DNA of 64,000 nucleotides from contig CAYHUD010000001.1 of assembly GCA_964360025.1 (NCBI GenBank), positions 3,922-67,921 on the forward strand. Reading direction: 5' to 3'. The stretch is from an uncultured Candidatus Saccharibacteria bacterium. Its GTDB lineage: Bacteria > Patescibacteriota > Minisyncoccia > UBA6257 > JAUSGH01. The notes below the pieces were generated by a model. That model saw only the letters and a program-made list of their open reading frames with translations, did not search any database and had not been told where the DNA came from. The position numbers and the translations under genes are program-made. Numbering within the stretch: position 1 is the first letter of the stretch; the number at the start of each line of letters is the position of its first letter. Below are positions 359 to 59,618 of this stretch, piece by piece.

Positions 359-946
359 CTACTTGTGGCACCTCCGGCATGGTGGCCACGACTTGATCGT
401 GACCGTCCCACTGCCGGACACCCGAAATCTAGGCACCGCCTCGGTGAACTCTAGATCGGGCAGCCGTCCGTCCACCGCGAGAGGATTTTCCATCCCCTCA
501 AAGTGGACGGCGACTATGCTTCCCGGTGGAATGCAAACCCGGAAGCACTCCCCGGGGAACTGGAACCAGTCGCCCGGACCATCCGGACCGACTGGGAGCG
601 ATCCCAGCGCGATCGTTTCCGATCGCACCGCGGGGCACGAGTGCCCCACCTGCGGCGCCGCGCCGACTTTTTTCTCTCCGCCTCCCCAGGAGACGGAGAG
701 AATAGCGAGCGAGATGAGCGCCAGCCCCACGATGAGGCCGACACTCGCCTGTTTGCGTGTGATCCAGCGTCCCGCCGGACCACCACGGAGATCCCGAGCG
801 GGGCTTTCGCCACCACCCGCTCCGCCGCCAGATCCTCCGCTCCGCCCCTGCGGAGCCGGTTGTTGCTGGCCACCACCCTGGTGGCCCTGACCCTGACCCG
901 CATCCCCGCTCTGCTGCTGGGAACGCGGTCCGTGTTCGCGAGCCAT
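359..946 (-). CDS. hypothetical Gly/Gln-rich protein with one TM helix; GC-rich ORF
   Basis: ATG preceded by GAAGGAGG RBS on minus strand, terminator hairpin downstream; TM segment ASVGLIVGLALISLAILSV; mirror ORFs on + strand considered artefacts of high GC. Confidence 0.55.
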   Translation of the reverse strand: MAREHGPRSQQQSGDAGQGQGHQGGGQQQPAPQGRSGGSGGGAGGGESPARDLRGGPAGRWITRKQASVGLIVGLALISLAILSVSWGGGEKKVGAAPQVGHSCPAVRSETIALGSLPVGPDGPGDWFQFPGECFRVCIPPGSIVAVHFEGMENPLAVDGRLPDLEFTEAVPRFRVSGSGTVTIKSWPPCRRCHK

Positions 947-958
947 GAAACCTCCTTC

Positions 959-996
959 TGTCCACTATCTCGTCCCATCGGACGAGATAGTGGACA
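959..996. repeat. family B 38-bp palindrome (tgtccactatctcgtcccatcggacgagatagtggaca)
   Basis: near-perfect inverted repeat; copies at 2841, 3495, 26754, 42775, variant 42893. Confidence 0.8.
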
Positions 997-2915: not shown

Positions 2916-3491
2916 ATGCGTGGAGATTTAATTCTATTCGTATTAAAAACGCTTCAAGTTGGCGCCCTATCCGTTACTGCGATCGCAGATTTACTGGATG
3001 AACACAGCATTCGCAATACCAATGCCTCTTTTTGGGGGCATCCTATAAAATCACCTCCGAAGCGCAGGATGATTTTTGAAGATAAAATAAATTCTCTCTC
3101 GCGGCAAAGGATGTTGGCTAAAATGGTATCAAAATTAAAATCTGAGGGGCTGGTGGTAAAAGACAAACAAGATATATGTGGGATAACAAAAAACGGCATA
3201 GTAAAATTGGGAAAATTATTAAATCTTAGAAGTCAGACGCCGAATTATGTCACCGAACAATCAAACGAGGTTAAAATAATCACCTTTGATATTCCGGAAT
3301 CAAAAAGGTCATCCCGTGTTTGGTTAAGACAAGCTTTAAAAAATCTCCGATTTAACTTTTTACAAAAAAGCGTCTGGGTGGGCAAAACTATAATCCCCCA
3401 CGAGTTCTTAAGCGATCTCCGCCAAAGAGAAATCTTTGATTTTGTAGAAATACTCGCAGTCACTAAAAAAGGCACGCTCCGTCAAATATAA
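2916..3491 (+). CDS. winged-helix DNA-binding protein with C-terminal Cas2/VapD-like domain (AT-rich gene)
   Basis: N-terminal wHTH-like segment; C-terminal 'KIITFDIPESKRSSRVWLRQALKNLRFNFLQKSVWVGK' matches Cas2 signature (YDI...KRR...L...G.R.Q.SVF); no cas1 or CRISPR array nearby. Confidence 0.5.
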   Translation: MRGDLILFVLKTLQVGALSVTAIADLLDEHSIRNTNASFWGHPIKSPPKRRMIFEDKINSLSRQRMLAKMVSKLKSEGLVVKDKQDICGITKNGIVKLGKLLNLRSQTPNYVTEQSNEVKIITFDIPESKRSSRVWLRQALKNLRFNFLQKSVWVGKTIIPHEFLSDLRQREIFDFVEILAVTKKGTLRQI

Positions 3492-3494
3492 AAA

Positions 3495-3531
3495 TCCCCT
3501 ATCTCGTCCCATGGGACGAGATGGGGGACAA
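3495..3531. repeat. family B palindrome (tcccctatctcgtcccatgggacgagatgggggaca)
   Basis: flanks gene 2916-3491 on the 3' side, 4 nt after stop. Confidence 0.8.
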
Positions 3532-3696
3532 GATAATACCCGAGAGAAGTAGCGCCCGGATAAAATAGTGCGGCAAGCCCCGAGTTTTAGCCCGTGACTT
3601 GCAACCAGGTTGGATCAGAATCACAATTTTGCTTTTTTATAATAAATGCTATTATAGCCGTTAGGTCATTGAAAAACCGCTTTGCGGGGGTGAAAT

Positions 3697-4476
3697 ATGT
3701 CACTCGTGACCACAAAGAAGAATCCGCAGGAAATACAAGAGAAATCCGGAAGAGAATGTGTCAAGTGGTCGGATGTTTATACCAGTATTCAAAGAAGAAA
3801 TCTTCTCGCGAAAACGAAAAGGGCTCTGCAGGACTTTCTCGCCTTCCTGTGTCATGTACCGCGGCTGACCGAAGAGGTGGAGATCGCCGGAGCTTACGGA
3901 CTTGTCCCCGACAAGCTGGTCGTAGTAGGGCACGCAAACCTGCCGCCCAATACGATCTGCGAAAGAACCTGGTCCTATGAAGCCGACGCGGAAGCAAAAC
4001 CGCCCAAACCGCAATATCTCTACCAGCCCGTGCTCTGGCGAGACGCCGATCGGATCATCCTGAATTATTCCCTGACTCCGGAAGACATTTGGGAAGCTCG
4101 GGACAAAATCCAGAAGCTAACATCTTTGAAACAAAATGCCATAGGTCAGTCACCGGACGAAACGAGCGCAATAGTCTCCGCGCTCTTGGCTTTGGCTGGT
4201 TCTCCGGCGGCGTGGCGACTCATACGGACCATCCGACTAGCGGTATCAAAAGAACCGTACACTTCTCAGTCCGGAGTTCCCGAGTTTGCATGTCTCATAA
4301 TGGATACGAACTGGGATACAGAAGATTGTGGTGGCCTTTGTCATCTTATGATGGGGGGTCTTAGGCGTTATTACGTCAATACCAACAACCCAAAAGAACT
4401 TACCGCCATAGCGGCAACATACGAACTCTCTGCAGAAAAATTGCGCCAAATCAAAGAAATGATTGAAGCAACTTAA
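3697..4476 (+). CDS. hypothetical protein (259 aa)
   Basis: long ORF, terminator follows; no recognisable motif. Confidence 0.5.
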   Translation: MSLVTTKKNPQEIQEKSGRECVKWSDVYTSIQRRNLLAKTKRALQDFLAFLCHVPRLTEEVEIAGAYGLVPDKLVVVGHANLPPNTICERTWSYEADAEAKPPKPQYLYQPVLWRDADRIILNYSLTPEDIWEARDKIQKLTSLKQNAIGQSPDETSAIVSALLALAGSPAAWRLIRTIRLAVSKEPYTSQSGVPEFACLIMDTNWDTEDCGGLCHLMMGGLRRYYVNTNNPKELTAIAATYELSAEKLRQIKEMIEAT

Positions 4477-7563: not shown

Positions 7564-7636
7564 GCGCGTGTAGCTCAACGGTTAGAGCATCGAGCTTATA
7601 CCTCGGGGGTTCATGGTTCGAATCCATGCACGCGCA
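7564..7636 (+). tRNA. tRNA-Ile, apparent anticodon UAU (loop CTTATAC); no CCA encoded
   Basis: cloverleaf: acceptor GCGCGTG/CACGCGC, D GCTC/GAGC, T-arm CATGG-TTCGAAT-CCATG. Confidence 0.65.
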
Positions 7637-7652
7637 CAAAATAGCAGGTTTT

Positions 7653-7890: not shown

Positions 7891-8112
7891 ATGCCCAGCC
7901 AACTCAAGCGCAAGTTCACGACCGACGAGGGGCCGCACGCGCGGTTCCTCGAGTCCTGCCGGCACGGTGCCGATGTGGCGCCGCCGCCGCAGAAACCGTG
8001 TTCCCGCAACGCGCGGGAGCACAACTTCGGGGACTTCCACTCCGCGCGGCAAATCGCCGCCGCGGAGCGGATGGAGCAAGAAGACGAAGCCAATCAGGGC
8101 CTCGTCAACTAG
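7891..8112 (+). CDS. small hypothetical protein (73 aa), GC-rich
   Basis: GGAGGG RBS 8 nt upstream; high GC3. Confidence 0.45.
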   Translation: MPSQLKRKFTTDEGPHARFLESCRHGADVAPPPQKPCSRNAREHNFGDFHSARQIAAAERMEQEDEANQGLVN

Positions 8113-8220
8113 CAGAAGCCGAGGGAGGGGGAGACTCATTCTACTCCCTCCCTCGGCTGGGTGAAAATCTCTGTGGTTGTCGGTTGTTCGGGGAAAAAAC
8201 TCAAGAACAAGGAGAAAGAA

Positions 8221-8430
8221 ATGTCCGCTCCAGCAGCAGCACCGCGAAAGCACCAAGACGCTTTCCGGGTGGCGAACCGCGCCGCCCGCCACGCCCAGTC
8301 GGCAGGACCCAGCGTCCCGCCGGAGGAGAACCTCCCCGTGGGGAACACCGCCACGGAAGAGGCCTTCTATGGCGGTGTCATGCGCGCGATGCGCAACACC
8401 GCCCACGCGCCTGCTCGCGGAGGCGAGTAG
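8221..8430 (+). CDS. small hypothetical protein (~69 aa), GC-rich
   Basis: AAGGAG RBS before ATG 8221 (six-frame ORF 8161-8430). Confidence 0.4.
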   Translation: MSAPAAAPRKHQDAFRVANRAARHAQSAGPSVPPEENLPVGNTATEEAFYGGVMRAMRNTAHAPARGGE

Positions 8431-8522
8431 ACGCACCGCCACCAGGAGGTGGCGGCAACGAGAACTCTCAAACCAAGACCCAGGGGGTCAGAGGTATGAG
8501 AGTTCTTTTTTTATTTAAAGAA

Positions 8523-8692
8523 AGAGAGATTCTTCGCGGGACGCCTGCCTGCCGGCAGGCAGGCTCAGAATGACGAAGGGGTTGTTACCCTCCTGGAATT
8601 AAATTCTGTCATCCTGAGGTTTACCGAAGGATCTCAAGTGAGATTCTTCGCGGGACGCCTGCCTGCCGGCAGGCAGGCTCAGAATGACGATC
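8523..8692. repeat. family A repeat array 1 (2 long units gagattcttcgcgggacgcctgcctgccggcaggcaggctcagaatgacga + 1 mirror unit tgtcatcctgag..gaaggatctc)
   Basis: exact 51-bp unit at 8525-8575 and 8639-8690. Confidence 0.85.
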
Positions 8693-8704
8693 AACCATAG
8701 AGAA

Positions 8705-8733
8705 TTTGACAAATGGGCGTAAAACCACTATAA
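8705..8733 (+). promoter_or_regulatory. sigma70-type promoter TTGACA-N17-TATAAA
   Basis: upstream of ORF 8780. Confidence 0.45.
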
Positions 8734-8779
8734 ATACTGAAGGCAGTCGTTCATATTCCCACCTCACTGGAGGGAGAAA

Positions 8780-8971
8780 ATGCCCACACCGGTAAAAGAA
8801 CCAACTCGACGCGGACAACTGGAAGCAGAATTTGCAGAGCATCGCTGGCGGCAAAAGAAGATGAATAAGTTGGAAGATGCGGCATTCCACCCTCTGTTGC
8901 CGAATCCGGATATGGCAAAAGTCGTTTGGCAACAGATGATCCAGGATCTTCAAATCCAAAATTCGCACTAA
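8780..8971 (+). CDS. small hypothetical protein (63 aa)
   Basis: GGAGGG RBS 6 nt upstream of ATG. Confidence 0.5.
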   Translation: MPTPVKEPTRRGQLEAEFAEHRWRQKKMNKLEDAAFHPLLPNPDMAKVVWQQMIQDLQIQNSH

Positions 8972-9105
8972 AAGTTAAGACGCGGAATCTCATTACTGCC
9001 CAGAAGGGGCAGTGGTGAGAATTTTTTTATTTATAATAAAACTTGCTTTTCACGACAATTTCTTTTATCATAGGTTTTAGTTTTATTGACAACGAAGGAG
9101 GTGCG

Positions 9106-9726
9106 ATGAAAGTCTTGATCGGGCTCATCGGGAAACCGCGCGTCGGCAAAGGAACTGTTGCCGGCATCATCACAAAACTTCTGGAGGAGAAAGGGATTAC
9201 AAGTAAAAACATGCGGTTCTCTGACCCGTTGAATGACATTCTCAAAATCCTCAATATTCCAAACTCCCGCACCAATCTGCAGAATCTTGCTCTCGTCTTA
9301 AGAAATGGGATCAGCGAAGATGTGCTTGCGCGTGCAATGGAACACAAAATCCTTCAAACAAAGGGGGATGTCATCATCCTGGATGGCATCCGGTGGATAC
9401 CGGATTTCGCGATGATAAAAAAGCTGGGCGGCATCACAATTTACATCAAGGCCAGTTTAGAAACCGCTTTCCGACGGACCCTGAGAAGTCAAGAAAAGGC
9501 AGGGGAATCCGAAACTACGCTGGATCAATTCCTCGCCCAACAAAAGGCAGAATCCGAAAAGTATATTGAGGCCATCGGCGAACATGCCGATTTCGTTTTG
9601 GAAAACGACGAGGACGACGATGCCTCTCCCTCGGCGCCAAAAGTTCTGACGCCGAGAGTGGAGATGATTATCGGGAATCTCGTAATCCCGATCCTGGAAA
9701 TCCCAACGGAGGAGGGGAAAGAATGA
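9106..9726 (+). CDS. P-loop NTPase, putative nucleotide/nucleoside kinase-like
   Basis: GGAGG RBS; P-loop GLIGKPRVGKGT near N-terminus; acidic C-terminal tail. Confidence 0.55.
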   Translation: MKVLIGLIGKPRVGKGTVAGIITKLLEEKGITSKNMRFSDPLNDILKILNIPNSRTNLQNLALVLRNGISEDVLARAMEHKILQTKGDVIILDGIRWIPDFAMIKKLGGITIYIKASLETAFRRTLRSQEKAGESETTLDQFLAQQKAESEKYIEAIGEHADFVLENDEDDDASPSAPKVLTPRVEMIIGNLVIPILEIPTEEGKE

Positions 9727-10199
9727 AAAGAATGTCCGTGATCGTTTTCGTTTCGCTGATTGCGATTACCCTCACTTACGTTTGGACGGGAAGTGTCGCC
9801 GCGCAGAACAAGCCGGTGGACGATCACCACAAGGCGAAGATTTTCAACTTCACGAATGTGAACGGCAGCGGCCGCGACAAGGCCGAGGCGGAAGTGAATG
9901 CGTGGCTTGCCGACAAGAACAACAAGGCGGCGGAGCCGATGGTGCTCTTCTGTTACAACGCACCGGCAGGAACCCTGCTTGTCACCGTCATCTGGAAGAA
10001 CGACGCGGTGACAAAGCCGTATCAGGTCAGGTTTTTTCCCATCACGGCCACAAACAGAGACAGCAAGAAAGAAAAGAACAAGAAGAAGAAGTCCCTGGAG
10101 GAAGAACTGAACGAGTTTTTCGCCGGAGTGACCCTGAAGCGGGTCTGGCAGGAGACCTCCGACGGAGTTGGAATGATCTTCGTCGTTTATCAGAAGTAA
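9723..10199 (+). CDS. secreted hypothetical protein (signal peptide MKRMSVIVFVSLIAITLTYVWTGSVAA)
   Basis: ATGA start/stop overlap with upstream gene; terminator follows. Confidence 0.55.
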   Translation: MKRMSVIVFVSLIAITLTYVWTGSVAAQNKPVDDHHKAKIFNFTNVNGSGRDKAEAEVNAWLADKNNKAAEPMVLFCYNAPAGTLLVTVIWKNDAVTKPYQVRFFPITATNRDSKKEKNKKKKSLEEELNEFFAGVTLKRVWQETSDGVGMIFVVYQK

Positions 10200-10205: not shown

Positions 10206-10250
10206 AACCCCATAGCTACAGCGTCAGGTGACGCACGCAGCTGTGGGGTG
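10206..10250 (+). terminator. rho-independent terminator (ccccatagctacagcg...cgcagctgtggggtgttttttt)
   Basis: long hairpin + T-run. Confidence 0.6.
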
Positions 10251-10259
10251 TTTTTTTAT

Positions 10260-10990
10260 TGAAAGTAGTTGGTAGTCCATAATTCATAATTCTTGATTCA
10301 TTATTCACTCCCTACCTCCCCCGCTCTCCCCTCCTGCTTGCCGCATTGCCTTATCCGGCAAGATATGGGGCTATAGTTGCCGATTGAAGAGTAGGGAAGC
10401 GGCAATCGGCAAATGTGGCAATTGCCGTGTAAAACAATGTGTTTTACATTTGTTTTACACTAATTTTAGAGCTTTTTAGAAGCCAATCGGTAGATAAAAC
10501 CTACATTATTTGAGTGTTTCGGGGTGTTTTACATAGTGTTTTCCATGGCCTACAAGCTCGGAAGCCGATCGTGCGATGAAACCTACATTATTTGCATTTT
10601 CGTGTTTTGGAGTGTTTGACGTTTTCCTTTTTTTACACACAATGGAAAACGTTAAACATCTTTTACCGGAAAAAAACTTTTTAAATTGCCGATTGAGGCA
10701 CATCAAGACGGCAATTCAATCGGCAAATGCGGCAATTTATGCGACTAATTGCCGCATCATACGGCAAAAAATGGTTGTAGTGTTTGACGTTAAACAAACA
10801 GTTAAAGTATGGCGAGATTGCCACGGGCCGACAACTGTCGGCCCTCGTAATGACAGATCGAGGAAAACGTCAAACATCGTTTTACACAGGAATTGGACAT
10901 GGATCATGAAACACGCATCATGGATCATGTGAGAACATGCGTCCCGTACTCCGTGTTATGTGTTATGTTAAACACACACGATGTTTCACG
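10260..10990. repeat. ~700-bp repeat-dense non-coding region (duplicated ~50-bp 'gccgattga.g...ggcaat.c..tcggcaaatg.ggcaatt' unit; 'aaacctacattatttg' x2; 'gtttgacgtt'/'aacgtcaaac'; 'gtgttttaca' motifs; family E copy at 10817-10855)
   Basis: direct reading; only short spurious ORFs. Confidence 0.6.
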
Positions 10991-10996
10991 TTTTCC

Positions 10997-11365
10997 ATGA
11001 CTAACCAAATTACGGGCAAAATAGGCGAAGATCTGGCGACCGACTATCTAACATCTCGCGGATATAAGCTAATTGAAAAAAACTACCGCCAGAAGTGGGG
11101 TGAGATTGACATAATAGTCAAATCATTGTCTGGTATTCTGGTCTTCGTTGAGGTTAAAACTCTTAACGGTATCCCCGACTCCGGCCTAACTCCCGAGGAT
11201 AACATCACCGCCTTTAAAATGCGGCAACTAAAAAAATGCGCTGAGTTTTACGCTGCAAAACATCCCGAGCTGATTAACGAAAAATCGGGGTGGCGAATTG
11301 ATGTTCTTGCTATAAATATTACCGAGGACTCGCCCGCCGATATCCGCCACTATGAAAATATCTAG
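10997..11365 (+). CDS. yraN: YraN/UPF0102-family endonuclease-like protein
   Basis: GEDLA.DYL...GY.LIEKNYRQKWGEIDII....GILVFVEVK signature; start at MTNQITGK. Confidence 0.7.
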   Translation: MTNQITGKIGEDLATDYLTSRGYKLIEKNYRQKWGEIDIIVKSLSGILVFVEVKTLNGIPDSGLTPEDNITAFKMRQLKKCAEFYAAKHPELINEKSGWRIDVLAINITEDSPADIRHYENI

Positions 11366-11455: not shown

Positions 11456-11483
11456 TTGACTTTCTGTAGGATGTTGCTATACT
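11456..11483 (+). promoter_or_regulatory. sigma70-type promoter TTGACT-N16-TATACT upstream of nusA
   Basis: hexamers read directly. Confidence 0.4.
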
Positions 11484-11551: not shown

Positions 11552-12751
11552 ATGATTGATTTAAAAAGTTTATCAAAAGCGGTGTCTCAGGTTGCAGAAG
11601 AAAAAGGTATTGATGCCAATCAGGTTTTGGACGCGATTGAGTCGTCTATCGCCGCGGCCTATAAAAAGGAGTATGAAAAGCGCGGTGAAATTATTAAATC
11701 CAAATTCAGTCTCAAAACCGGAGACATGAAGTTCTGGCAGGTGAAAGTCGTCGTGGACGAAACGACGGTTGATATGACCAAGCCCGAGGAAAACACGGAA
11801 GAAATAAATTCACAAAATGAGAGATCTGCCCCCGCCGAATTTACGACTGAAGGCGAAGACAAACTGCCGCGCTATAACTCCGACCGCCATATATTAATAG
11901 AAGAGGCGAAAAAAATTAAGGAAGATGTGAAGCTCGGAGAGGAAATGGAGTTCCCTCTGGAACCGCGGGAGGATTTCGGACGCATCGCCGCACAGACGGC
12001 AAAGCAGGTTATCTTACAGAAACTTCGCGAAGCGGAAAGAGAATCAATTCTTAAAGAATTCCACAATCGCGAAGGTGAAATCGTAAGCGGACTTGTGCAG
12101 AGAATTGAGCGCAATAATATCTATATTGATCTGGGACGCACCGTCGGCGTAATGTTTTTCAACGAATCAATTCCCAACGAACACTACCGTATCGGCGAAC
12201 GCCTGCGCTTCTTAATACTCGCCGTGCAAAATGACGCGAGACTGCCGGGAATTATTTTATCCCGCGCGCATCCGAAATTTATCAACAAATTATTCTCCAT
12301 TGAGGTGCCGGAAATTGCCGATGGCAGCGTGGAGATGAAGGCTATCGCCCGCGAACCCGGAAGCCGCACCAAAATCGCCGTCCACTCTAACGTCTCCGGT
12401 ATTGATCCCGTGGGATCCTGCGTGGGACAACGCGGCACGCGCGTGATGGCGCTTTCCAATGAGCTTGGACAGGAAAAACTGGATATCATTGAGTGGTCCG
12501 ATGACGCCGCGAAATTCATCGGCAATTCCCTCTCGCCCGCCAAGGTTTCCAAAGTGGAAGCCCTGCCGCACAACGAAGCCCGGGTTTATGTCCCCGAAGA
12601 TCAGCTAAGTCTCGCTATCGGACGTGGCGGACAAAATGTCCGTCTCGCGGCCAAACTCACCGGCTGGAAAATAGACGTGCGTTCCGAAACACGCCCCACG
12701 GAAGAACAAAACGGCGGGGTGGCGGACGCGGTTTCCGGCGCTAAAGAATAA
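11552..12751 (+). CDS. nusA: transcription termination/antitermination factor NusA
   Basis: N-terminal domain, S1 and two KH regions (…GSRTKIAVHSNVSGIDPVGSCVGQRGTRV…). Confidence 0.9.
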   Translation: MIDLKSLSKAVSQVAEEKGIDANQVLDAIESSIAAAYKKEYEKRGEIIKSKFSLKTGDMKFWQVKVVVDETTVDMTKPEENTEEINSQNERSAPAEFTTEGEDKLPRYNSDRHILIEEAKKIKEDVKLGEEMEFPLEPREDFGRIAAQTAKQVILQKLREAERESILKEFHNREGEIVSGLVQRIERNNIYIDLGRTVGVMFFNESIPNEHYRIGERLRFLILAVQNDARLPGIILSRAHPKFINKLFSIEVPEIADGSVEMKAIAREPGSRTKIAVHSNVSGIDPVGSCVGQRGTRVMALSNELGQEKLDIIEWSDDAAKFIGNSLSPAKVSKVEALPHNEARVYVPEDQLSLAIGRGGQNVRLAAKLTGWKIDVRSETRPTEEQNGGVADAVSGAKE

Positions 12752-35697: not shown

Positions 35698-37920
35698 CTA
35701 CCACTTCTCAACAATCAGCCAGGACTTATTTTCCACGGGAAGTTTCTGATAAATTTCTTCGGTCAAATGAGGCATAAAGAGGTGTAGGATCTTTAATGAC
35801 TCAAGGAGAATATAGCCCAGAACGGCATTCGTATTTTCATCAATCTGCTTTTTGGACTCCTCAAGATAGATATCGCAGAAATCATGCCAGAAAAAATCAT
35901 AAACCTCATGGAGCGCCGCACCCATATTATATTTTTTAATGCCGGCCTCCACGGATTTTTTGACTGATTTGAGTCGCGCGATGATTTTTTTATCAGCGGC
36001 GGTTTTTGGCTTTACGCTTTGCTCTTTGCCCTTTGCGCTTCGCGCCAGAACAAACCGCGCCGCATTCCAAATTTTATTGGCGAACTTTTTACCGGCCATA
36101 ACTGCCGCCTCATCCCAACGGACGTCCTGTCCGCCCATCGCCTGCCAGATGATGCCAAACCTAGTGGCATCGGCGCCGTATTTTGAAACGAGCTCAAGAG
36201 GATCCACGCCCGTGCCCAGTGACTTAGACATTCTCCGGCCATCTTTTGCGAGCACGGTCGCGTGAATGAGCGCCGTCTTAAAAGGCGTTTTCCCACCCAT
36301 AAATTCCAGGCCGGAAAAAATCATGCGACCAACCCAGAGATTGATAATATCACGGGCGGTAATCAGGACATCTGAGGGATAAAATAATTGCAAATCGGTT
36401 TGAGAAAGTCCTGCAAACGGCCACAAAGCTGAAGAGAACCATGTATCCAGGACATCCTCTGACTGAACAAACTCCGCATCGCAAAATTCGCACCCAGGTT
36501 TTGCAAGAGATACAATCATATCTTTGCACTTTACTATTTCGTCTTCGTGGCCGGACTTGGGCACGCACTTCGGCTCGTGGAACCAAACAGGAAGACGATG
36601 CCCCCACCAAATCTGGCGGGAAATGCACCAGTCCTTAATATTTTTTAGCCAGTCAAAAAACGGTTTTTCAAAATTTTTGGGAACAATCTTTGTTTTACCG
36701 GATTTAACAGTTTTTGCCGTCGCTTTTGCCAGTTTATCCATATCCATAAACCATTGATTGGAAAGAATAGGTTCCAGAGTGCTGTCACAACGGTAGCACT
36801 TTGCCACATTGTGTTTGTAGTCCTCTATTTTTTCCATTAAGTTTTGGCTCTCCAGCTCCGCTATGACTTTCTCGCGACATTCGGAAATTTTCAAGCCATC
36901 GCACACCGCTCCGACATTTTTCATACGGCCGCGTTCGCTGATAATTTCATAACTCGGCAAATCATGGCGTCCGGCAATTTCGTTATCCAGCAAATCATGC
37001 GCCGGAGTTACTTTTACCATTCCGGTGCCAAAGGTTATATCAATAGCATCGTCGCCAATTATGGGAATCTCCCGATTAACTATCGGCAAGACAGCTTTTT
37101 TTCCGATCAAATTTTTATACCGCTTATCTTTTGGGTTCACTGCCACAGCCGCATCGCCCAACATTGTTTCCGGGCGGGTAGTCGCGACAACGATAAAATC
37201 TTTAGTATTGTCATTCTGAGGCGAAGCCGAAGAATCTTTTTGAGATCCTTCGGGTGCACTCAGGATGACAGAATCTGGAGTAGTACTTAAGAGGGGATAT
37301 TTAATAAAATAAAGCTTGCCCGTCTCTTCTTTGTGTTCAATTTCCAGATCGGAAAGAGAAGTGCCGCAACGAACGCACCACGAAACCATTCTTTTGCCGC
37401 GATAAATGAAACCTTTTTCGTAATAATGCACGAATACCTTAAGCACTTCCTCGCTATAAGACGGGTCCATGGTAAAACGCGTACGGCTCCAGTCGGCAGA
37501 AGCCCCGAGGCGTTTTAGCTGGTCAAGAATGATATTGCCGTATTTGGCTTTCCATTCCCAAACTTTTTCCACAAACTTCTCGCGGCCGAGATCAAAGCGA
37601 CTGATATTTTCTTTACGCAAGTTTTTTTCCACCACATTTTGCGCGGCGATACCGGCATGGTCTATGCCCGGGAGCCAGGCGGTTTTAAAACCCTTCATCC
37701 GATGATAACGAATCAAAATATCCGTCGTTGTGGCATTTAAGGCGTGACCCATGTGCAATGACCCTGTTATATTCGGCGGCGGAAGGAGGACGGTGTAGGA
37801 TTTTTTACCTTTTCCCGGAGCAAAAAAACCGCGCGAGAGCCACTCTCCGTAAATGCGGGTTTCCACTGACTTGGGATCGTAAGCTGATGACGCTTCCTGC
37901 TTTTTATTTAGGTCTTCCAT
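35698..37920 (-). CDS. valS: valyl-tRNA synthetase (compact form)
   Basis: HIGH (PPNITGSLHMGHAL), TTRPETMLGD, KMSKS (RMSKSLGT). Confidence 0.9.
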   Translation of the reverse strand: MEDLNKKQEASSAYDPKSVETRIYGEWLSRGFFAPGKGKKSYTVLLPPPNITGSLHMGHALNATTTDILIRYHRMKGFKTAWLPGIDHAGIAAQNVVEKNLRKENISRFDLGREKFVEKVWEWKAKYGNIILDQLKRLGASADWSRTRFTMDPSYSEEVLKVFVHYYEKGFIYRGKRMVSWCVRCGTSLSDLEIEHKEETGKLYFIKYPLLSTTPDSVILSAPEGSQKDSSASPQNDNTKDFIVVATTRPETMLGDAAVAVNPKDKRYKNLIGKKAVLPIVNREIPIIGDDAIDITFGTGMVKVTPAHDLLDNEIAGRHDLPSYEIISERGRMKNVGAVCDGLKISECREKVIAELESQNLMEKIEDYKHNVAKCYRCDSTLEPILSNQWFMDMDKLAKATAKTVKSGKTKIVPKNFEKPFFDWLKNIKDWCISRQIWWGHRLPVWFHEPKCVPKSGHEDEIVKCKDMIVSLAKPGCEFCDAEFVQSEDVLDTWFSSALWPFAGLSQTDLQLFYPSDVLITARDIINLWVGRMIFSGLEFMGGKTPFKTALIHATVLAKDGRRMSKSLGTGVDPLELVSKYGADATRFGIIWQAMGGQDVRWDEAAVMAGKKFANKIWNAARFVLARSAKGKEQSVKPKTAADKKIIARLKSVKKSVEAGIKKYNMGAALHEVYDFFWHDFCDIYLEESKKQIDENTNAVLGYILLESLKILHLFMPHLTEEIYQKLPVENKSWLIVEKW
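37208..37270. repeat. family A palindromic element inserted in frame within valS (tgtcattctgaggcgaagccgaagaatctttttgagatccttcgggtgcactcaggatgaca)
   Basis: encodes ValRS segment ...ILSAPEGSQKDSSASPQNDNT... Confidence 0.75.
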
Positions 37921-44663: not shown

Positions 44664-45398
44664 ATGGACATCAAGGGAATCCTCAACCAGGCGTTGGAAG
44701 TCGCTGACGTGGTCTATGTCGGCGATGATCGTGAAGTTTCGGTTTTCGCTTTTTTGGAGGAACAAAAGCGACAAGTAGGCCCGGCCTACCAGGCCGCAAA
44801 TGATGTGCGTCATCACTCCAAAATCGGAATGGTGGCGCTGAAGGAGAGTAACTACGCCCTGCTCGCCCTGTGCGCTCAGCGCATCGGAGAGAACATGGCC
44901 ACTCTCCGAAGATTGAACCTCCCCGCCGATCTGCTGTGGCAGCATATCGGCGAGGCTGGGCAGGAAGCCGGGGAGTTCATGCTGGTGCGTGAGCTCCACG
45001 AACTTCTCTTCCCCCGAGGCATGGTGCCCTCGGGATCCGAGCCGTTTGAGGGGGGGATGAATATCCCCTCAGCGACCGATCTCTGCCTCGAGCCGCAGGC
45101 GTGGCTCGCGGCATTGATCGACGCCACGAGCGAGCTGGGCAAGCTCGCCGTGGAACGGATGTGCCGCGGGGACATGACCCGCGCACAACATGTGGCGACG
45201 CTCCGGAGAATGCTGGAGATTGCCCGTACGGTGTACGGCTACCTTCAGAAATTTGAAGGGGCGGTTCCCATGATCATCAACAACAGCCGTCGCAGGGGGT
45301 ATGGAAATACCTTCCGCGGCGCGATGTACCGCATCGAGCGGCTGATTGAGAACAACGAGCTCGCCCTGCTCCGGATGGTGCAGGACGACTCCAAGTAA
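44664..45398 (+). CDS. hypothetical protein (244 aa), strongly GC-rich gene
   Basis: GAGGTG RBS; terminator follows. Confidence 0.55.
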   Translation: MDIKGILNQALEVADVVYVGDDREVSVFAFLEEQKRQVGPAYQAANDVRHHSKIGMVALKESNYALLALCAQRIGENMATLRRLNLPADLLWQHIGEAGQEAGEFMLVRELHELLFPRGMVPSGSEPFEGGMNIPSATDLCLEPQAWLAALIDATSELGKLAVERMCRGDMTRAQHVATLRRMLEIARTVYGYLQKFEGAVPMIINNSRRRGYGNTFRGAMYRIERLIENNELALLRMVQDDSK

Positions 45399-45423
45399 TA
45401 ATCGCCTGCTCGCAGTTTCAGGA

Positions 45424-45452
45424 CCCCCCACGGGATGTGGGGGGTTTTCATT
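45424..45452 (+). terminator. rho-independent terminator (ccccccacgggatgtggggggttttcattttt)
   Basis: hairpin + T-run. Confidence 0.7.
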
Positions 45453-45472
45453 TTTATGGGGAGAGGATCAAG

Positions 45473-45730
45473 TAGAGATTCTTCGCGCGACGCCTGCCTG
45501 CCGGCAGGCAGGCTCAGAATGACAAGGTGTAAAGCTCAGAAAGACAGGAGGAAAACGCGAATCAGGATGACCAAATGCGACGTTTAAGATGACAGAGGGG
45601 AACCGTGTCATCCTGAGGTCTACCGAAGGATCTCGGGATTGAGATTCTTCGCAAGGCCTGCCGGCAGGCAGGCAGGCTCAGAATGACAACGTGTTGCGCT
45701 TAGAACGACAGGGCTCTGCGCTCAGAATGA
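45473..45730. repeat. family A repeat array 3
   Basis: multiple gagattcttcgc..ctcagaatgaca, tgtcatcctgag..gaaggatctc and gcctgcctgccggcaggcaggc modules. Confidence 0.85.
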
Positions 45731-45752
45731 CGAAAAAGTAATAAGATAATTA

Positions 45753-46040
45753 TCAAAGATCCAATGATAAGTCCCTGAAATCAGGATTGTTTTCTTTAAT
45801 AAGAACTTCCTTTTTAATACGCGTCCAGCCTTTTATTTTCTTCTCCGCTAGAATAGCAAACTCTGGAGAATTAAATACTTCGTAGAATATCAGCTTGTTA
45901 AGATTGTATCTCTTTGTAAACCCATCAACTAATTTTTCTTTATGTTCCTGCATCCGACGACGAAGATTGTTGGTCATACCTGTGTATAAAACAGTGTGTA
46001 TTTTATTCGTAATTATATAGACAAAATAATTTTGGTTCAT
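45753..46040 (-). CDS. GIY-YIG nuclease family protein (small, ~96 aa)
   Basis: YFVYIITNKIHTVLYTGMTNNLRRRMQEH; six-frame N-terminal extension is repeat-derived. Confidence 0.75.
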   Translation of the reverse strand: MNQNYFVYIITNKIHTVLYTGMTNNLRRRMQEHKEKLVDGFTKRYNLNKLIFYEVFNSPEFAILAEKKIKGWTRIKKEVLIKENNPDFRDLSLDL

Positions 46041-46047
46041 AAAATTT

Positions 46048-46332
46048 AGAGATTCTTCGCGCGACGCCTGCCTGCCGGCAGGCAGGCTCAGAATGACGGA
46101 GAGTGGTGTCGGCGTCCTGGAATTAAATTCTGTCATCCTGAGCGAAGCGAAGGATCTCGGAATTGAGATTCTTCGCGAAGCTCAGAATGACTAGTGAATG
46201 TTTGTCATCCTGAGACTAGTTTCTGTCATCCTGAGGTTTGACGAAGGATCTCGGAAAAGAGATTCTTCGCGAAGCTCAGAATGACAAGGTGCAAAGCTCA
46301 GAATGACAAAGTGTTGCGCTCAGAATGACAAA
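46048..46332. repeat. family A repeat array 4
   Basis: five or more modules, begins 8 nt upstream of GIY-YIG start. Confidence 0.85.
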
Positions 46333-46340
46333 AATAAAAA

Positions 46341-47396
46341 TTACTTAGCAAAAGGATTCCTTGCACCAATCACTTCAAAGTGCAAATGGCAGCCCGTCGG
46401 GCCGTGGACATTGCCGGTGTTGCCGATATAGGCGATGGTGTCGCCTTGTAAAACATAGTCGCCTACCGAAACGACATTTTTAGAATTATGCGAGTAGCGG
46501 GTTTTCGTATTATTGGGGTGTTCAATCACAATGTAACCGCCATAGCCTTCGTTCCAGCCTCCGCTTTTTGACTCCGCGACCAGCCCCTCCGCCGCCGCGT
46601 AAATAGCCGTGCCGCAGGCGTTCGCGATATCCACGGCATTAAAATTATGCAGCTTGCCCCAGTTCCAGCCGGTAGTCGGAATGGCGTAATACCCCGGAAA
46701 GTTGGGTAACTTAGATGCTGTGGCTACAGTTGCCGGCGGTTTGACATCGGGAATAATTAAATTAACCCCTGCGTAAAGACCCTGGCTCAAAACTCTGGGA
46801 TTATATTTTAAAATACGCGACTCCGGTATGGAAAAAGACGCCGCAATGCTATCCAGCGTCTCACCGCTAGCCACTTGGTAAATAATGCCGGACACGGGCA
46901 AAATAGTAATCTCCTGGCCGATTTTAAGCGACGAACCTTTTACGCTTTTATTCGCCCAATAAATAGTATTTAAAGAGATGCCAAAGTTAGCGGCGATCTT
47001 AGAAAGGGTGTCGCCTTTCTGGATTTTATAAATAATAAGCCCATCGCGATGCACCAGCACGCTACTTTGCGGATTGCCGGTATTCAGGAAAGCCGAGTCG
47101 TCAATAATAAAAGAGCCGGGATCGTCATCGTCGCTCAAAATCATAATGCTATCATCGTCGGGCGCGCCGGATGCGCCCAGAGTGGCATCACTGCCCACAA
47201 AACCCAGCGAAGTTCCGTCACCCGGCCCTCCGCCGTTTCCGCCTTCCGCCGAAAAGGCCGTGCTGACCTCGTTCTGTAAAGAAATATTGATAAAAACGGT
47301 GATAATAAGCAAAACAACCGGTATGGCGACGGTTGCTCGGTGAATATGCTCCCGCAAGTGCTTTATTAACTTAGAAAACTTGTGTATATTTCCCAT
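46341..47396 (-). CDS. LysM-domain M23 family metallopeptidase
   Basis: two LysM-like segments (DTLSKIAANFGI, ETLDSIAASFSI) and M23 C-terminus (…IAYIGNTGNVHGPTGCHLHFEV). Confidence 0.8.
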   Translation of the reverse strand: MGNIHKFSKLIKHLREHIHRATVAIPVVLLIITVFINISLQNEVSTAFSAEGGNGGGPGDGTSLGFVGSDATLGASGAPDDDSIMILSDDDDPGSFIIDDSAFLNTGNPQSSVLVHRDGLIIYKIQKGDTLSKIAANFGISLNTIYWANKSVKGSSLKIGQEITILPVSGIIYQVASGETLDSIAASFSIPESRILKYNPRVLSQGLYAGVNLIIPDVKPPATVATASKLPNFPGYYAIPTTGWNWGKLHNFNAVDIANACGTAIYAAAEGLVAESKSGGWNEGYGGYIVIEHPNNTKTRYSHNSKNVVSVGDYVLQGDTIAYIGNTGNVHGPTGCHLHFEVIGARNPFAK

Positions 47397-49509: not shown

Positions 49510-50391
49510 ATGCACCAACGACTCGGACAACACTTTTTAATCAATAAATCGGCTATTGCGGAAACAATTGCCGCATTGACATTGGAGGAAAATGATTTAG
49601 TTGTGGAGATCGGGCCCGGGCATGGAGCTCTTACGCTACCCCTAGCTCAAAAATGTGTAGGTTTTAACTGCAAAATCATGGCTATTGAGAAAGACGCCGC
49701 GCTTGTGGATAACCTGTCAGAAACGATGCGGAAATACGGCAATATGGTGCAAATTATTGCCGGGGATGCGCTCGAAGAACTGCCTAAACTCGCAAAGCGC
49801 GAATCGCTGGGCGATGAAGACGGAAAAGGGTGGAAACTGGTGGGAAATATACCCTATTACATCACCGGAAAATTGCTAAGAATCATCGGGGAGCTAGAAA
49901 ATAAGCCCCACATTACGGTTTTGATGGTCCAAAAAGAAGTCGCGGAAAGGATAACAGCCACTCCAAAAGGGGGAATGAATCCCGTTAGAAGTAGCCCGCC
50001 CATAGGCCCTTCGGGCGCGCTTCGCGCGGGCGCGACTTCTAACGGGATGAATCTGCTTGCCGCCGCAACTCAATTCTGGAGCGATATTTCCATCATAAAA
50101 CGCTTAAAACCTAGCGATTTTGATCCGCCGCCAGAGGTGGACTCGGCAATAATTAAATTAAAGATCAAAGATCAAAGATCAAAAAGACGGGAGGCTGAGG
50201 GTTATTATAAATTGATCAAAATTGCCTTTAAACAACCAAGAAAGACGCTTTTGAATAACCTTGTAGATGGTCTTGATGATAAAAAAGAGGTGATTTTACA
50301 GAAAATCGCCGATTTGGGCTTTAACGAAAAAACTCGGGGGCAAGAATTGAGCGTGGAACAGCTTTTGGTTTTGGCGAGATCCTTCGGCTAA
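49510..50391 (+). CDS. rsmA: 16S rRNA (adenine1518/1519-N6)-dimethyltransferase RsmA/KsgA
   Basis: LGQHFL, VEIGPGHGALT, GNIPYYITGKLL; contains in-frame family D insertion; 3' end lies in repeat. Confidence 0.85.
   Translation: MHQRLGQHFLINKSAIAETIAALTLEENDLVVEIGPGHGALTLPLAQKCVGFNCKIMAIEKDAALVDNLSETMRKYGNMVQIIAGDALEELPKLAKRESLGDEDGKGWKLVGNIPYYITGKLLRIIGELENKPHITVLMVQKEVAERITATPKGGMNPVRSSPPIGPSGALRAGATSNGMNLLAAATQFWSDISIIKRLKPSDFDPPPEVDSAIIKLKIKDQRSKRREAEGYYKLIKIAFKQPRKTLLNNLVDGLDDKKEVILQKIADLGFNEKTRGQELSVEQLLVLARSFG
49979..50048. repeat. family D palindromic element inserted in frame in rsmA, flanked by ATGAAT direct duplication
   Basis: cccgttagaagt...acttctaacggg; encodes extra NPVRSSPPIGPSGALRAGATSNG between duplicated GMN codons. 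Confidence 0.7.
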
Positions 50392-50745
50392 CACCTCAGG
50401 ATGATAAAGAATAACCTCGGGACAACAAACACAACCCTGTCATTCTGAGCCTGCCTGCCCGCTTCGCCCGCCTAGACTCGGCGAGGCCTGGCCGTGGCTT
50501 CAGCGAGGCGAGCCGGCAGGCAGGCGTTGCGCGAAGAATCTCGAGATCCTTCGCTTCGCTCAGGATGACAAAAATTAGCCTCGGGATGGTCAACTAAGTA
50601 ACGAGATCCTTCGGCTAACACCTCGGGATGATAAAGAATAACCTCGGGACAACAAACACAACCCTGTCATTCTGAGCGTTGCGCGAAGAATCTCGAGATC
50701 CTTCGCTTCGCTCAGGATGACAAAAATTGGTTTCGGGATGGTTCG
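50380..50745. repeat. family A repeat array 5, includes ~225-bp tandem duplication (50386-50610 / 50611-50745) and nested long palindrome 50449-50526
   Basis: 'gagatccttcggctaacacctc.ggatgataaagaataacctcgggacaacaaacacaaccctgtcattctgagc' present twice. Confidence 0.85.
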
Positions 50746-50806
50746 CTAAGTGGTGCGAACCACTTATTCACATCTTGTTCACATCGGAGAATGATATAAT
50801 AAAGTA

Positions 50807-51583
50807 ATGCGAAAGCTTTTAACGCTCGGTTTCGTCGCAGTAATTTTGATTTTCTCCGCGCTTATAACTCTCGGCAACTGGAGTTTGAATGACGACAAAA
50901 AACAGGCGGCTGACGACTCTGCCAAAAATCCCGGCGTCTCTATTTCTTTTCCTCAGATTGAAGAGCAAAAAATAGCCGAGGCGTTGCTCCAAAAAACCCT
51001 CTCGCAGACCACAAAAATTCTGGGTGAAAATGCCACGAAAAAATTAGCCGACGATCTCTCCAAAGAAATAGTTGAAAAAAATCCTAACGGACCGGGACCT
51101 CTGGGAAGCCAAAAAATCAGCGTGCCGCAAGCAGAGGAAATAGTCGCCGATTTTTTGCAAAAGGGCGTGGATAATTTTAATTATGAAGAACTGAAGCCCG
51201 CGATTGCCGACTCCGATTTGAATATTGTTGGCGATGATCCCGCCGCGCTTGCCCGATATTATAAAAACTTTTTTGAAATCCTGAGCGGAAATTTTAATCT
51301 CGGCCCCGCCGAATCCGATCCGCAGAATTCTTTGGACATTCTGGTTTCCGTCTATGAGAACTACATTAAGAAATTTTATTTGTTGGAAACTCCTGAGAAA
51401 TTCGCCGACATACAGAAACAACAGATCTCGCTTCTCGCCGCTCAGAGAAATATTTACCGCCTGATGAGGGACTATGAAAATGATCCGCTTAAAGCCGTGC
51501 TGGCGATGAAGGCGCTTGACACGGTAAAACAAGAAACCGCCGATCTCTATACCAAGCTGGCGAAGACGGTGGCGAAAATTTAA
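50807..51583 (+). CDS. hypothetical membrane-anchored protein (first gene of T4SS-like cluster)
   Basis: N-terminal TM; co-directional cluster. Confidence 0.5.
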   Translation: MRKLLTLGFVAVILIFSALITLGNWSLNDDKKQAADDSAKNPGVSISFPQIEEQKIAEALLQKTLSQTTKILGENATKKLADDLSKEIVEKNPNGPGPLGSQKISVPQAEEIVADFLQKGVDNFNYEELKPAIADSDLNIVGDDPAALARYYKNFFEILSGNFNLGPAESDPQNSLDILVSVYENYIKKFYLLETPEKFADIQKQQISLLAAQRNIYRLMRDYENDPLKAVLAMKALDTVKQETADLYTKLAKTVAKI

Positions 51584-51625
51584 TAAGCGGTAATCAACAC
51601 GCAGAAAAGAAGAGCGAAAACTTAA

Positions 51626-53272: not shown

Positions 53273-53344
53273 GGATTCGTCTCGGCTTGCCGGAAGAGCG
53301 CGGTAGTAATAACGCTCTCCTCAGGCAAGCGGAGAAAACAAAAA

Positions 53345-55366: not shown

Positions 55367-55378
55367 CTTGTAAAAACG

Positions 55379-56515
55379 ATGGACAACAAAACCCTACGCA
55401 CAACTTTCCGTGCACTGCCAAGCGACATCAAAGACTGGCTTTTTTCCGAAAAAGTAACCTATTCGGTAGCAGAGTTAAATACCCGCCTTAATATAAAAGG
55501 CGAGCGTGCAGGTGTTGTTGCTAAACTGGTAGCGCGGCTTGTCGTCCAGGATTTGGATACTCGCGATTTCGTGAACGAATTGGCGATAGAGTTAAATGTC
55601 AGCAATTCCGCCGCTAAGGCCATCACTAAAGAAGTTGAGGAAAAGGTTCTACACCCGATAGAAGCATCGCTTCGCGCCAATCTGGGAATTGATGTGGCTA
55701 TGCTCCATATGGGAAACGAGGTTTCCCTGTCATCGATTACGCCCCTACCGGATGAAGCCGAAAAAACTCCGGCGCCGCGTACGCCTTTTTCCGTGCCTGA
55801 CGCCGCTAAAAGCGAAGCCACCCCACATATCTTCGCTCCGATGGCGCCTAAAGTTTCCGACACAAAAACCCCCTCCGGTCCTTTTATACTACACACCGAA
55901 CAAGAACCGGCGAAACCCATCGCGCCGCCCATAAACGCCCCGCAAAGACCCACTTTCTCTATAAAAATTCCTCTGGCGCAAAAGAAATACGGCGCTCCTC
56001 CCGTAACAGCTCGCATTGAAACCGGCGCACCCGAAACCAGAACTCCCGAGACGCAAAAGACATCCGAATTCCAGGGCTCACGGATCATTCCGGTACCGCC
56101 CTTGCGCCAGAGCCTCACCATACAGCCCCCGCGCCGTCCGGTTTCATTTGAACCAATACAACCAAGTACAGCCAATCAGGCTCCCTTGAAAATAACACCT
56201 CCGCCACTCCGCCGCCTGCCCCCACTTCCGCCTCTTATAAAACCACAAAACCAACAAATCACTACCGCGCCGTCAGCGGCTCCCAAACAAGAGATTTCCA
56301 TTCTACCCATAAATCCCGCCCTTCCTGTAAAACCAAGCGTCCCCGCTCCGATTCCGGCCAGACCGGCGGCGCCGCCTTTAACATTGCCGCCCAAAGTTTC
56401 TTCGCCCGCCGCGCCGAAACCACCCATGCCCCAGATTCCGCTAAAAACACCGACAAATACGGTGAACATCCAAAAAGTAGTCCACTATTCCGACTTTTTC
56501 ACAAAGTTACAATAA
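55379..56515 (+). CDS. Pro-rich hypothetical protein
   Basis: PPxP-rich low-complexity C-terminal half. Confidence 0.45.
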   Translation: MDNKTLRTTFRALPSDIKDWLFSEKVTYSVAELNTRLNIKGERAGVVAKLVARLVVQDLDTRDFVNELAIELNVSNSAAKAITKEVEEKVLHPIEASLRANLGIDVAMLHMGNEVSLSSITPLPDEAEKTPAPRTPFSVPDAAKSEATPHIFAPMAPKVSDTKTPSGPFILHTEQEPAKPIAPPINAPQRPTFSIKIPLAQKKYGAPPVTARIETGAPETRTPETQKTSEFQGSRIIPVPPLRQSLTIQPPRRPVSFEPIQPSTANQAPLKITPPPLRRLPPLPPLIKPQNQQITTAPSAAPKQEISILPINPALPVKPSVPAPIPARPAAPPLTLPPKVSSPAAPKPPMPQIPLKTPTNTVNIQKVVHYSDFFTKLQ

Positions 56516-56516
56516 A

Positions 56517-57866: not shown

Positions 57867-57873
57867 TAATAAA

Positions 57874-59589: not shown

Positions 59590-59618
59590 GGTTTAGAAGA
59601 TAGGTTATCATCTTATTT

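Follow-up and report, generated by a model that had tools for sequence, protein, structure and literature searches.

A conserved, repeat-rich intergenic element with parS-like sites upstream of yraN in an uncultured Candidatus Saccharibacteria bacterium

An intergenic gap of about 740 bp, packed with direct and inverted repeats, separates two operons in the genome of an uncultured Candidatus Saccharibacteria bacterium, and raises the question of what such an arrangement is for. The gap occupies positions 10260–10996 of a 64,000-nucleotide stretch of contig CAYHUD010000001.1 (assembly GCA_964360025.1, positions 3,922 to 67,921 of the forward strand), which is referred to here as the window and from which all coordinates are counted unless a related locus is named. 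A preliminary description of the window had offered three possibilities: a replication origin, a partition site and a multi-operator regulatory region. To our knowledge, nothing experimental is known about the organization or segregation of chromosomes in the candidate phyla radiation (CPR), and full-text literature searches returned no paper on parS/ParB or on oriC/DnaA box in Patescibacteria, Parcubacteria or CPR. The analysis reported here established that the repeats are real, that their ordered layout is conserved over a family-level radiation, that in relatives they grade into exact parS, that their symmetry is at the level of DNA, and that the gap is not oriC. Tentatively, we interpret the gap as a centromere-like array of protein-binding sites derived from chromosomal parS.

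The gap is free of genes and dense in repeats

The gap is an interval without credible open reading frames (ORFs) that extends from the terminator of the upstream operon to the start codon of yraN (position 10997). No genes are called within it on identical public contigs (Hainich groundwater sample H52). A protein-coding function was considered and rejected: the only long ORF, 10576–10932, would yield a low-complexity product rich in Cys and Phe, and the public annotation is empty. ORF inspection and gene calls thus bear out the earlier statement that no credible ORF spans the region. Exact 10-mer pairs in the gap numbered 22 direct and 23 inverted, compared with means of 0.49 and 1.71, and maxima of 6 and 8, in 500 dinucleotide shuffles. 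All of the repeats listed in the preliminary description were recovered, with coordinates offset by 1–6 bases, and the repeat words of the gap are essentially missing from the remaining 63 kb of the window. The words could be sorted into three families: A (CGGCAA(T)), B (TGTTTNAC half-sites) and C (GATRAAACCTACAT). Individual features are collected in Table 1.

Family B carries the resemblance to parS. The sequence TGTTTCACGTGAAACA is the chromosomal centromere bound by ParB, and is regarded as nearly invariant (PMC5450999). Half-sites of family B occur 21 times in the window (6.6 expected), and 11 of the 21 fall inside the 560 bp between 10429 and 10989. The 15-mer TGTTTNACGTTTTCC is present in four copies, every one of them within the gap, where 0.03 would be expected. 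The word GTGTTTTACA occurs exactly at 10439 and 10524, with variants at 10428 (minus strand), 10450 and 10536, and a canonical parS half-site, TGTTTCAC, is found at 10982. A further repeat noted previously, GTTTGACGTT, was confirmed at 10782 and at 10614 (previously given as 10608), with its inverse AACGTCAAAC at 10866.

Family A comprises about 15 CGGCAAT words in two arrays; between 10001 and 11000 there are 12 CGGCAA words, compared with a mean of 1.2 per 500 bp. The module earlier described as duplicated is present and could be refined to 10377–10423 versus 10686–10737 (one stretch of 30 nt that agrees at 70% and another of 21 nt at 95%). Family C consists of a 34-nt unit ending in GATRAAACCTACATTATTTG, of which the gap holds two copies that are 85% identical; the word AAACCTACATTATTTG at the end of this repeat, previously placed at 10496 and 10578, starts at 10497 and 10579. 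A hairpin reported at 10817–10855 also exists, as a shorter GC-rich structure (Table 1).

Related loci carry the element, with palindromes that grade into parS

Relatives were collected by nusA-anchored scans of a one-genome-per-species set and of metagenome contigs, and from contigs encoding YraN homologues; individual loci are designated by L numbers. The genome is a Patescibacteria genome of the Paceibacteria/Wolfebacteria type. Its nearest relatives are distant, the best YraN homologue being 57% and the best NusA 71% identical (Candidatus Wolfebacteria and other Paceibacteria). At upwards of 16 related loci from Paceibacteria, an element homologous to the gap adjoins yraN, nusA or both; comparison across relatives, which the preliminary description had proposed, thus revealed a conserved element with an ordered layout. 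Upstream of yraN, the order of parts is shared by L086, L092, L008, L091, L006, L011, L098, L104, L167, L170 and L172. The layout begins with an array of CCGGCAAT words, in which CCGGCAATTGCCGG is often included; in L008, L091, L086, L092, L170 and L172 this array is homologous to A-array 1 of the window. Motif C follows, with the consensus AACCCGATAAGCCCGTAAAACCTAC, then TGTTTnnCA half-sites, of which there are two or three, either tandem or inverted, and finally two to six palindromes TGTTTnnCGnnAAACA of 16 bp each, spaced 30–104 bp apart. The palindromes of L091 recur with a 37-bp period. L006 carries, at 3485–3800, identical 59-bp tandem units that each contain TGTTTGCCGGCAAACA and are broken by a run of N (an assembly gap); the true copy number of this array probably exceeds the assembled count.

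The pattern TGTTTNNCGNNAAACA gave 38 matches in 16 independent loci, all of them within homologous gaps. Sites within two mismatches of canonical parS numbered 23 in 1.5 Mb, compared with about 0.5 in shuffled controls, and the elements of L040 and L082 contain exact canonical parS. The outer arms and the central CG of the palindromes are kept, while the inner arm dinucleotide is lineage-specific (CA, TA/TC, AG, GT, GC or CG). Identity of this dinucleotide was 0.50 within a locus and 0.10 between loci, which none of 2000 permutations reached.

The genes around the element are less constant. In L040, L159 and L133 yraN is inverted, so that the element lies at its 3' end; L130 and L127 have the element without yraN; L167 and L170 have rpsO-pnp or gyrA downstream in place of nusA; and comM is found near the element in L167 and L172. 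Since yraN can be inverted or missing and the downstream genes can change, the element is not simply the leader or promoter of one particular gene. It is a chromosomal landmark that holds its position while neighbouring genes change.

These comparisons bear on the possibility that the gap is functionless repeat DNA, left by decayed duplications or by a mobile element. The copy in the window does resemble a partial internal duplication, with its two A arrays and two C motifs, and the genome contains another, dispersed repeat family. The ordered layout is kept, however, at a syntenic site where NusA is only 50–70% identical, the words of the gap are not found elsewhere in the 64 kb, and there was no match in plasmid or phage collections. 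This explanation is already largely refuted, and we consider it highly improbable. A plasmid or phage origin, and an iteron-type plasmid replicon or partition cassette, were rejected as well, there being no similarity in 72,556 plasmids or 50,697 phages and no adjacent rep or parA/parB.

Three structures at the related loci were recorded in addition. First, the distant loci L130, L127, L159, L040 and L133 contain a module, TTGTTTCACAC-TT-TGTTTCACAC-AA-TGTTTCATGTGAAACA, that is present twice, and between its copies there is usually a conserved 60-nt (approximate length) hairpin, GGCTTAACC...GGTTAAGCC (L159 140–215, L040 5285–5350, L127 4545–4620, L130 1800–1860 and 1940–2000, L133 1075–1140). 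The interior of this hairpin is variable and partly covarying, with T-runs on either side; a small RNA, a terminator acting in both directions and a cruciform are all conceivable. Second, a short conserved hairpin (GAAGATCGCCCAAAGGCGATCTT and variants) that may be a nusA leader element lies just 5' of the nusA start in L127 (4945–4975), L130 (2295–2325), L133 (1825–1850) and L011 (5925–5955). Third, four DnaA-box-like TGTCCACA repeats and a tRNA lie between the two exact parS sites of L082 (4255–4340), 1.6 kb upstream of nusA; in that lineage the homologous locus could be closer to the origin, or part of it.

A centromere-like array is the preferred reading

Judged from these comparisons, the element is a real, conserved, composite cis-element. 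We read it as a DNA-level protein-binding array that is derived from chromosomal parS, centromere-like and origin-proximal, with accessory sites in addition, and put the probability of this reading at roughly 45%. Partition is favoured over the other functions proposed in the preliminary description, and is the best supported of them, because the dominant word family, B, is composed of parS half-sites and parS-like 16-mers, and because relatives have exact canonical parS. The location agrees with the expectation for origin-proximal parS. YraN and DnaA are both recorded on a single 82,364-bp NCBI contig, which places the element 54–55 kb from dnaA/oriC; this distance is known from one genome, since among the relatives no DnaA match was found on the contig of a yraN locus.

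The analysis shows sequence relationships; which protein binds the sites, and that they serve in segregation, we infer. Dimers of a ParB-family helix-turn-helix protein would nucleate on sites and half-sites of the TGTTT..CG..AAACA type, and would then build a partition complex or a complex that loads structural maintenance of chromosomes (SMC) proteins, as at other bacterial parS clusters. The CGGCAAT arrays and GATRAAACCTACAT would bind one or more accessory factors.

Several observations weigh against this interpretation. Neither ParB nor ParA is encoded in the 66.8 kb of available sequence (the window plus 2.8 kb, see below) or in any of about 170 related loci. The copy in the window has a single near-complete 16-mer, most of its sites being half-sites or the non-palindromic 15-mer TGTTTNACGTTTTCC, on which canonical ParB is not known to load. 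Palindrome positions 6–7, conserved in canonical parS, vary here, and the uniformity seen within a locus could come from recent duplication instead of co-evolution. Sampling was anchored on nusA or yraN, which biases where elements turn up, and any match to the 16-mer pattern necessarily has the fixed outer arms. As an operator might, the last B site directly adjoins the start codon of yraN, and motifs A and C are left unexplained by this reading.

A bolder version of the centromere reading would give Paceibacteria a composite centre of chromosome organization. Chromosomal parS, near-universal elsewhere, would have diverged between lineages and grown into arrays that combine complete sites with half-sites, which would imply that the specificity of ParB has drifted or that another protein has taken over. 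Through CGGCAAT, a second motif found also at the edge of oriC, these arrays would be coupled to the origin 55 kb away, giving a two-factor centromere that links initiation with segregation in ultra-small bacteria. We consider this version improbable.

If the element is a ParB-type centromere, it would provide a concrete cis-site for chromosome segregation in Paceibacteria. It would also mean that the 'universal' chromosomal parS can diversify inside one bacterial class, a behaviour known otherwise from secondary replicons alone. From the conservation of motifs A and C, a minimum of one additional DNA-binding factor can be expected, and motif A is common to oriC.

Folding and conservation point to action at the DNA level

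For the region 10590–11000 the two strands have the same predicted folding energy, −142.5 kcal/mol (z-scores of −8.0 and −9.3). This equality indicates that the pairings are Watson-Crick palindromes without strand preference. With Rfam 15, only tRNAs passed the gathering thresholds in the window; at permissive thresholds the gap gave no credible family either, its best hit having E = 0.015 and being to an unrelated eukaryotic family. Conservation across lineages is of primary sequence, seen in the TGTTT/AAACA arms, the central CG, motif C and CCGGCAAT, and the stems do not covary.

A function as RNA would involve either a non-coding RNA with a defined structure or a succession of weak hairpins acting as terminators or attenuators within a yraN/nusA leader, for example in NusA-dependent autoregulation. 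The predicted fold is indeed very stable, each palindrome in L008, L086 and L092 is followed by ATTTTAATT on the yraN strand, and in Bacillus nusA operons are known to undergo NusA-dependent attenuation. However, the opposite strand folds equally well, Rfam gave no match, and conservation lies in primary sequence rather than in covarying stems. In addition, the T-rich tails are missing from L091, L006 and the window, nusA has a promoter of its own after yraN (11456–11483), and in some lineages the element is on the other side of yraN. Action as RNA is, in our judgement, very unlikely.

Operator sites for yraN are the main alternative

The position of the element raises the possibility that one or two DNA-binding regulators, acting as dimers or on tandem sites, bind the words of families A and B and control yraN, and perhaps nusA. 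In the window, as in 10 or more relatives, the element lies directly 5' of yraN, and the last 15-mer of the window touches the yraN ATG. Regulators of the OmpR/PhoB/WalR type use direct-repeat sites, and tandem TTTACA-N5-TTTACA words with 11-bp spacing fit their consensus. YraN is also part of the transformation machinery, which is usually under tight regulation (bioRxiv 10.1101/2024.02.06.579203). On the other hand, no regulator gene adjoins the element in any locus, and the element lies at the 3' end of the inverted yraN in L040, L159 and L133 and occurs without yraN in L130 and L127. Arrays of 4–8 sites and the 59-bp tandem units far exceed ordinary operators, the exact canonical parS of relatives indicates ParB, and nusA has a separate promoter downstream of yraN. 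We regard a multi-operator region as unlikely, while considering it the main rival to the centromere-like array.

Binding of the element by YraN itself was also considered. YraN is reported to be a structure-specific nuclease of transformation D-loops that partners the ComM helicase (bioRxiv 10.1101/2024.02.06.579203); this activity, together with the two loci that carry the element without yraN, makes a site-specific binder unlikely.

The canonical origin module lies in the dnaA–dnaN spacer

A contig found via the YidC of the window, L163, adds 2.8 kb to it (66.8 kb in total), with rnpA, dnaA and dnaN. The prediction that dnaA would lie beyond the rnpA end of the window proved correct, the gene being at 64472–65833 of the extended sequence. 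The dnaA–dnaN spacer (65834–66125; L163 640–980, minus strand) is 292 bp long, 69% AT, and the densest TCCACA bin of the 66.8 kb. Upstream of dnaN it contains the origin module ATATCCACA-ATTCCACA-GGCT-CTACTACTCCTACTG-ATTTATTTATTAATTAAA, made up of two tandem DnaA boxes (ATATCCACA-ATTCCACA), a short GC spacer, TAG-type DnaA-trios on the other strand (CTACTACTCCTACTG) and an AT-rich stretch. The spacer also carries TTATCCATA and GTTTCCACA, and a perfect DnaA box, TTATCCACA, lies upstream of dnaA at about 64262. The origin block is kept in L174, a relative whose DnaA is 91% identical. Such a module is the basal unwinding system of Bacillus subtilis and many other bacteria, reportedly described by Richardson et al. 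in 2016 and Pelliciari et al. in 2021.

Within the gap, by comparison, there is no DnaA box within one mismatch of TTATCCACA, no TCCACA core, and no combination of DnaA-trio and AT-rich unwinding module, the AT content being only 58%; the DnaA-box-like words suggested as a test of the origin proposal are thus absent at this threshold. Raw sliding-window GC skew was found to track the coding strand and was therefore replaced by a four-fold-site strand decomposition. The T-over-A strand term (r_TA4) was −0.11 [−0.17, −0.04] left of the element and −0.14 [−0.19, −0.10] right of it, and the G-over-C term (r_GC4) was negative on both sides with intervals that include zero. No switch of strand compositional polarity was therefore detected at the element, although the evidence is moderate, as few genes lie on its left; instead of the skew extremum expected of an origin, the available sequence has the same sign on both sides.

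Some features would nevertheless suit a role in replication, be it as an origin, as a second or auxiliary one, or as a control site linked to oriC. The repeats are arranged like iterons; three CGGCAAT words are found where the dnaA–dnaN spacer has its left edge and are kept in the relative with 91%-identical DnaA; genes in relatives tend to point away from the element, as most genes of the window, directed rightwards, also do; and L082 has its TGTCCACA repeats between two parS sites. Against these stand the lack of DnaA boxes, trios and unwinding module in the gap, the complete canonical module 55 kb away, and the negative skew on both flanks. The gap thus shares with oriC a long intergenic region in which direct and inverted repeats are densely packed, and the CGGCAAT words, but differs in having no DnaA boxes, trios or unwinding element. 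The proposal of an origin was not borne out, and we rate any such role as quite improbable. For the annotation of CPR genomes, this is a caution against labelling such repeat-rich gaps as origins.

The overlap in CGGCAAT words suggests a possible factor common to oriC and the element. CGGCAAT is, however, a common 7-mer in the genome (47 copies, about 8 expected at random), and the overlap is therefore of modest statistical weight. The A-type words of the oriC spacer (aatgCGGCAATccttCGGCAAg...atcaatCGGCAAt) are at its dnaA-proximal edge (L163 about 900–960, minus strand; L174 1550–1620) and are followed by tandem TGTT(N)AAAA words with 11-bp spacing; this block is the best conserved of the spacer in L174. 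With oriC to the right of the window, the roughly three-quarters of genes that are on the plus strand (5644–62441) would be head-on to replication, an unusual orientation bias. At four-fold sites the bottom strand has more T and slightly more G, a skew that agrees with replication from the dnaA side.

Comparison with known systems

The element resembles chromosomal parS/ParB (Spo0J) sites in the 16-bp dyad with TGTTT...AAACA arms and central CG, of which the window has one example at two mismatches from the canonical sequence, in the exact sites found in relatives, in its origin-proximal position 55 kb from oriC, and in acting, as far as can be judged, at the level of DNA. It differs in several respects. 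The sites are here mostly half-sites, tandem half-sites at 11–12 bp or a non-palindromic 15-mer; the inner bases of the palindromes vary among lineages; all sites lie in one gap of 0.3–0.7 kb together with two other motif families; and no ParB gene is found in the 66.8 kb or the approximately 170 loci.

The Bsr Par systems of Burkholderiales are the closest documented analogue. Their sites are 16-bp palindromes with a T-rich 5' end, a central CG and family-specific cores, and the group includes naturally asymmetric sites with two arm types (parS-12J) and weak single-arm binding (PMC5450999). Outer arms and central CG are kept in both the Bsr sites and the element, with inner bases that differ by family or lineage. 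Bsr sites, however, lie beside their own parAB on secondary chromosomes or plasmids, whereas the element is chromosomal, away from par genes and in an unrelated phylum.

Among plasmid and phage centromeres, sopC of F consists of 43-bp tandem units, and parS of P1 combines box A, box B and an integration host factor (IHF) site. The tandem units of L006 (59 bp), each with a 16-bp inverted repeat, recall such arrays, and the two distinct word types with a third conserved site recall P1 parS. Unlike such centromeres, the element has no sequence similarity to plasmid or phage records and no adjoining partition operon.

Tandem interspaced guide RNA (TIGR) arrays (PMC12045711) share with the element an occurrence in CPR bacteria, short repeats, palindromic units and, in L091, a period of about 37 bp. 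The element differs in that it has no nearby Tas gene, lacks box C/D motifs and a regular 36-nt unit with dual repeats, and keeps a conserved chromosomal position. A TIGR or CRISPR-like array was rejected, as the neighbours gave no Pfam match to Tas (Nop domain) and the spacing is irregular. A dif/Xer site was rejected too: in a comparison made by eye with the Escherichia coli dif consensus, only the XerD-arm-like TTATGTTAAAC (10963–10973) matches, the left arm agrees at 3/11 positions, and motif C conserves what would be the spacer.

Features and surroundings of the gap

Table 1. Coordinates of features in and around the gap (window positions; L numbers are related loci).
Feature	Position	Strand	Remarks
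Terminator-like hairpin (intrinsic type) CCCCATAGCT...AGCTGTGGGG with T-run	10208–10257	+	Closes the upstream operon; left border of the element; read from the sequence
A-array 1, about 9 CGGCAA(T)/(A)TTGCCG words	10338–10429		Both orientations; includes palindrome GGCAATTGCC at 10416–10425
B triad of TGTTTTACA half-sites	10428–10460		Order (−),(+),(+); (+) copies 11 bp apart, start to start; triad also in L086 and L092
C motif copy 1, GAAGCCAATCGGTAGATAAAACCTACATTATTTG	10479–10512	+	Motif kept in L011, L104, L086, L092, L008, L170 and L098
Three tandem B-type words GTGTTTCGG, GTGTTTTACA, GTGTTTTCCA	10513–10546	+	Spacing 11–12 bp
C motif copy 2, GAAGCCGATCGTGCGATGAAACCTACATTATTTG	10561–10594	+	33 nt are 91% identical to L011 5374–5406
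46-bp inverted repeat of two 15-mers TGTTTNACGTTTTCC	10613–10658		10613–10627 (+) and 10644–10658 (−)
A-array 2, about 8 CGGCAAT/ATTGCCG words	10684–10770		Two perfect 11-nt inverted repeats, 10686–10696/10716–10726 and 10727–10737/10747–10757
parS-like 16-mer TGTTTGACGTTAAACA	10781–10796		Two mismatches versus canonical parS TGTTTCACGTGAAACA; only match to TGTTTNNCGNNAAACA in the window
GC-rich hairpin GGGCCGACA-AC-TGTCGGCCC	10825–10844		Flanked by B sites; the hairpin at the corresponding place in distant relatives is a different one
15-mer TGTTTGACGTTTTCC (−), then TCGTTTTACAC	10862–10887		From the repeat listing and the 15-mer count
CATGGATCATG, twice	10898–10929	+	21 bp apart; repeat particular to the window
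GTGTTATGTGTTATGTTAAACACACA (contains TGTTTAAC on the minus strand), then 15-mer TGTTTCACGTTTTCC (+)	10954–10996		15-mer touches the yraN ATG
yraN (UPF0102 PD-(D/E)XK nuclease)	10997–11365	+	Pfam PF02021, E = 9e-22; most constant neighbour of the element

Upstream of the gap lie ftsH, tRNA-Ile, tRNA-Val, a repeat-rich stretch, a kinase-like P-loop gene (9043–9726), a gene for a signal-peptide protein (9723–10199) and the terminator, which a simple terminator scan had missed because of its long loop. The upstream genes were considered as a parA/parB operon and rejected: the 227-aa ORF encodes a kinase-like P-loop protein (AAA_18) and the 158-aa protein has a signal peptide. ORF 7998–8573 was dismissed as a spurious frame rich in Arg, Gly and Pro. 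Downstream, yraN is followed by nusA (11552–12751) and then by a gene for an H+-pyrophosphatase.

Other observations in the window

A dispersed family of GC-rich intergenic repeats occupies 8119–9225, 45388–46862 and 50185–50921, and also 37228–37274, at a repeat density above that of the gap. Its units are AGATTCTTCGCG..GCCTGCCTGCCGGCAGGCAGGC..CTCAGAATGAC and TGTCATCCTGAG...GGATCTC hairpins, similar pieces flank yraN in L167, and the family looks like an element of the repetitive extragenic palindrome (REP) or miniature inverted-repeat transposable element (MITE) type. The tRNA-Ile at 7564–7637 (ARAGORN) has the anticodon TAT (UAU), which is uncommon in bacteria, where AUA is usually read by a lysidine-modified CAU tRNA. 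Finally, a type IV secretion or conjugation-like cluster (TrbL-like, PrgI, VirB4/TraC-like, a TraG P-loop protein and several type IV secretion system pilin genes) extends over 50807–62441 and adjoins jag-yidC-rnpA-dnaA.

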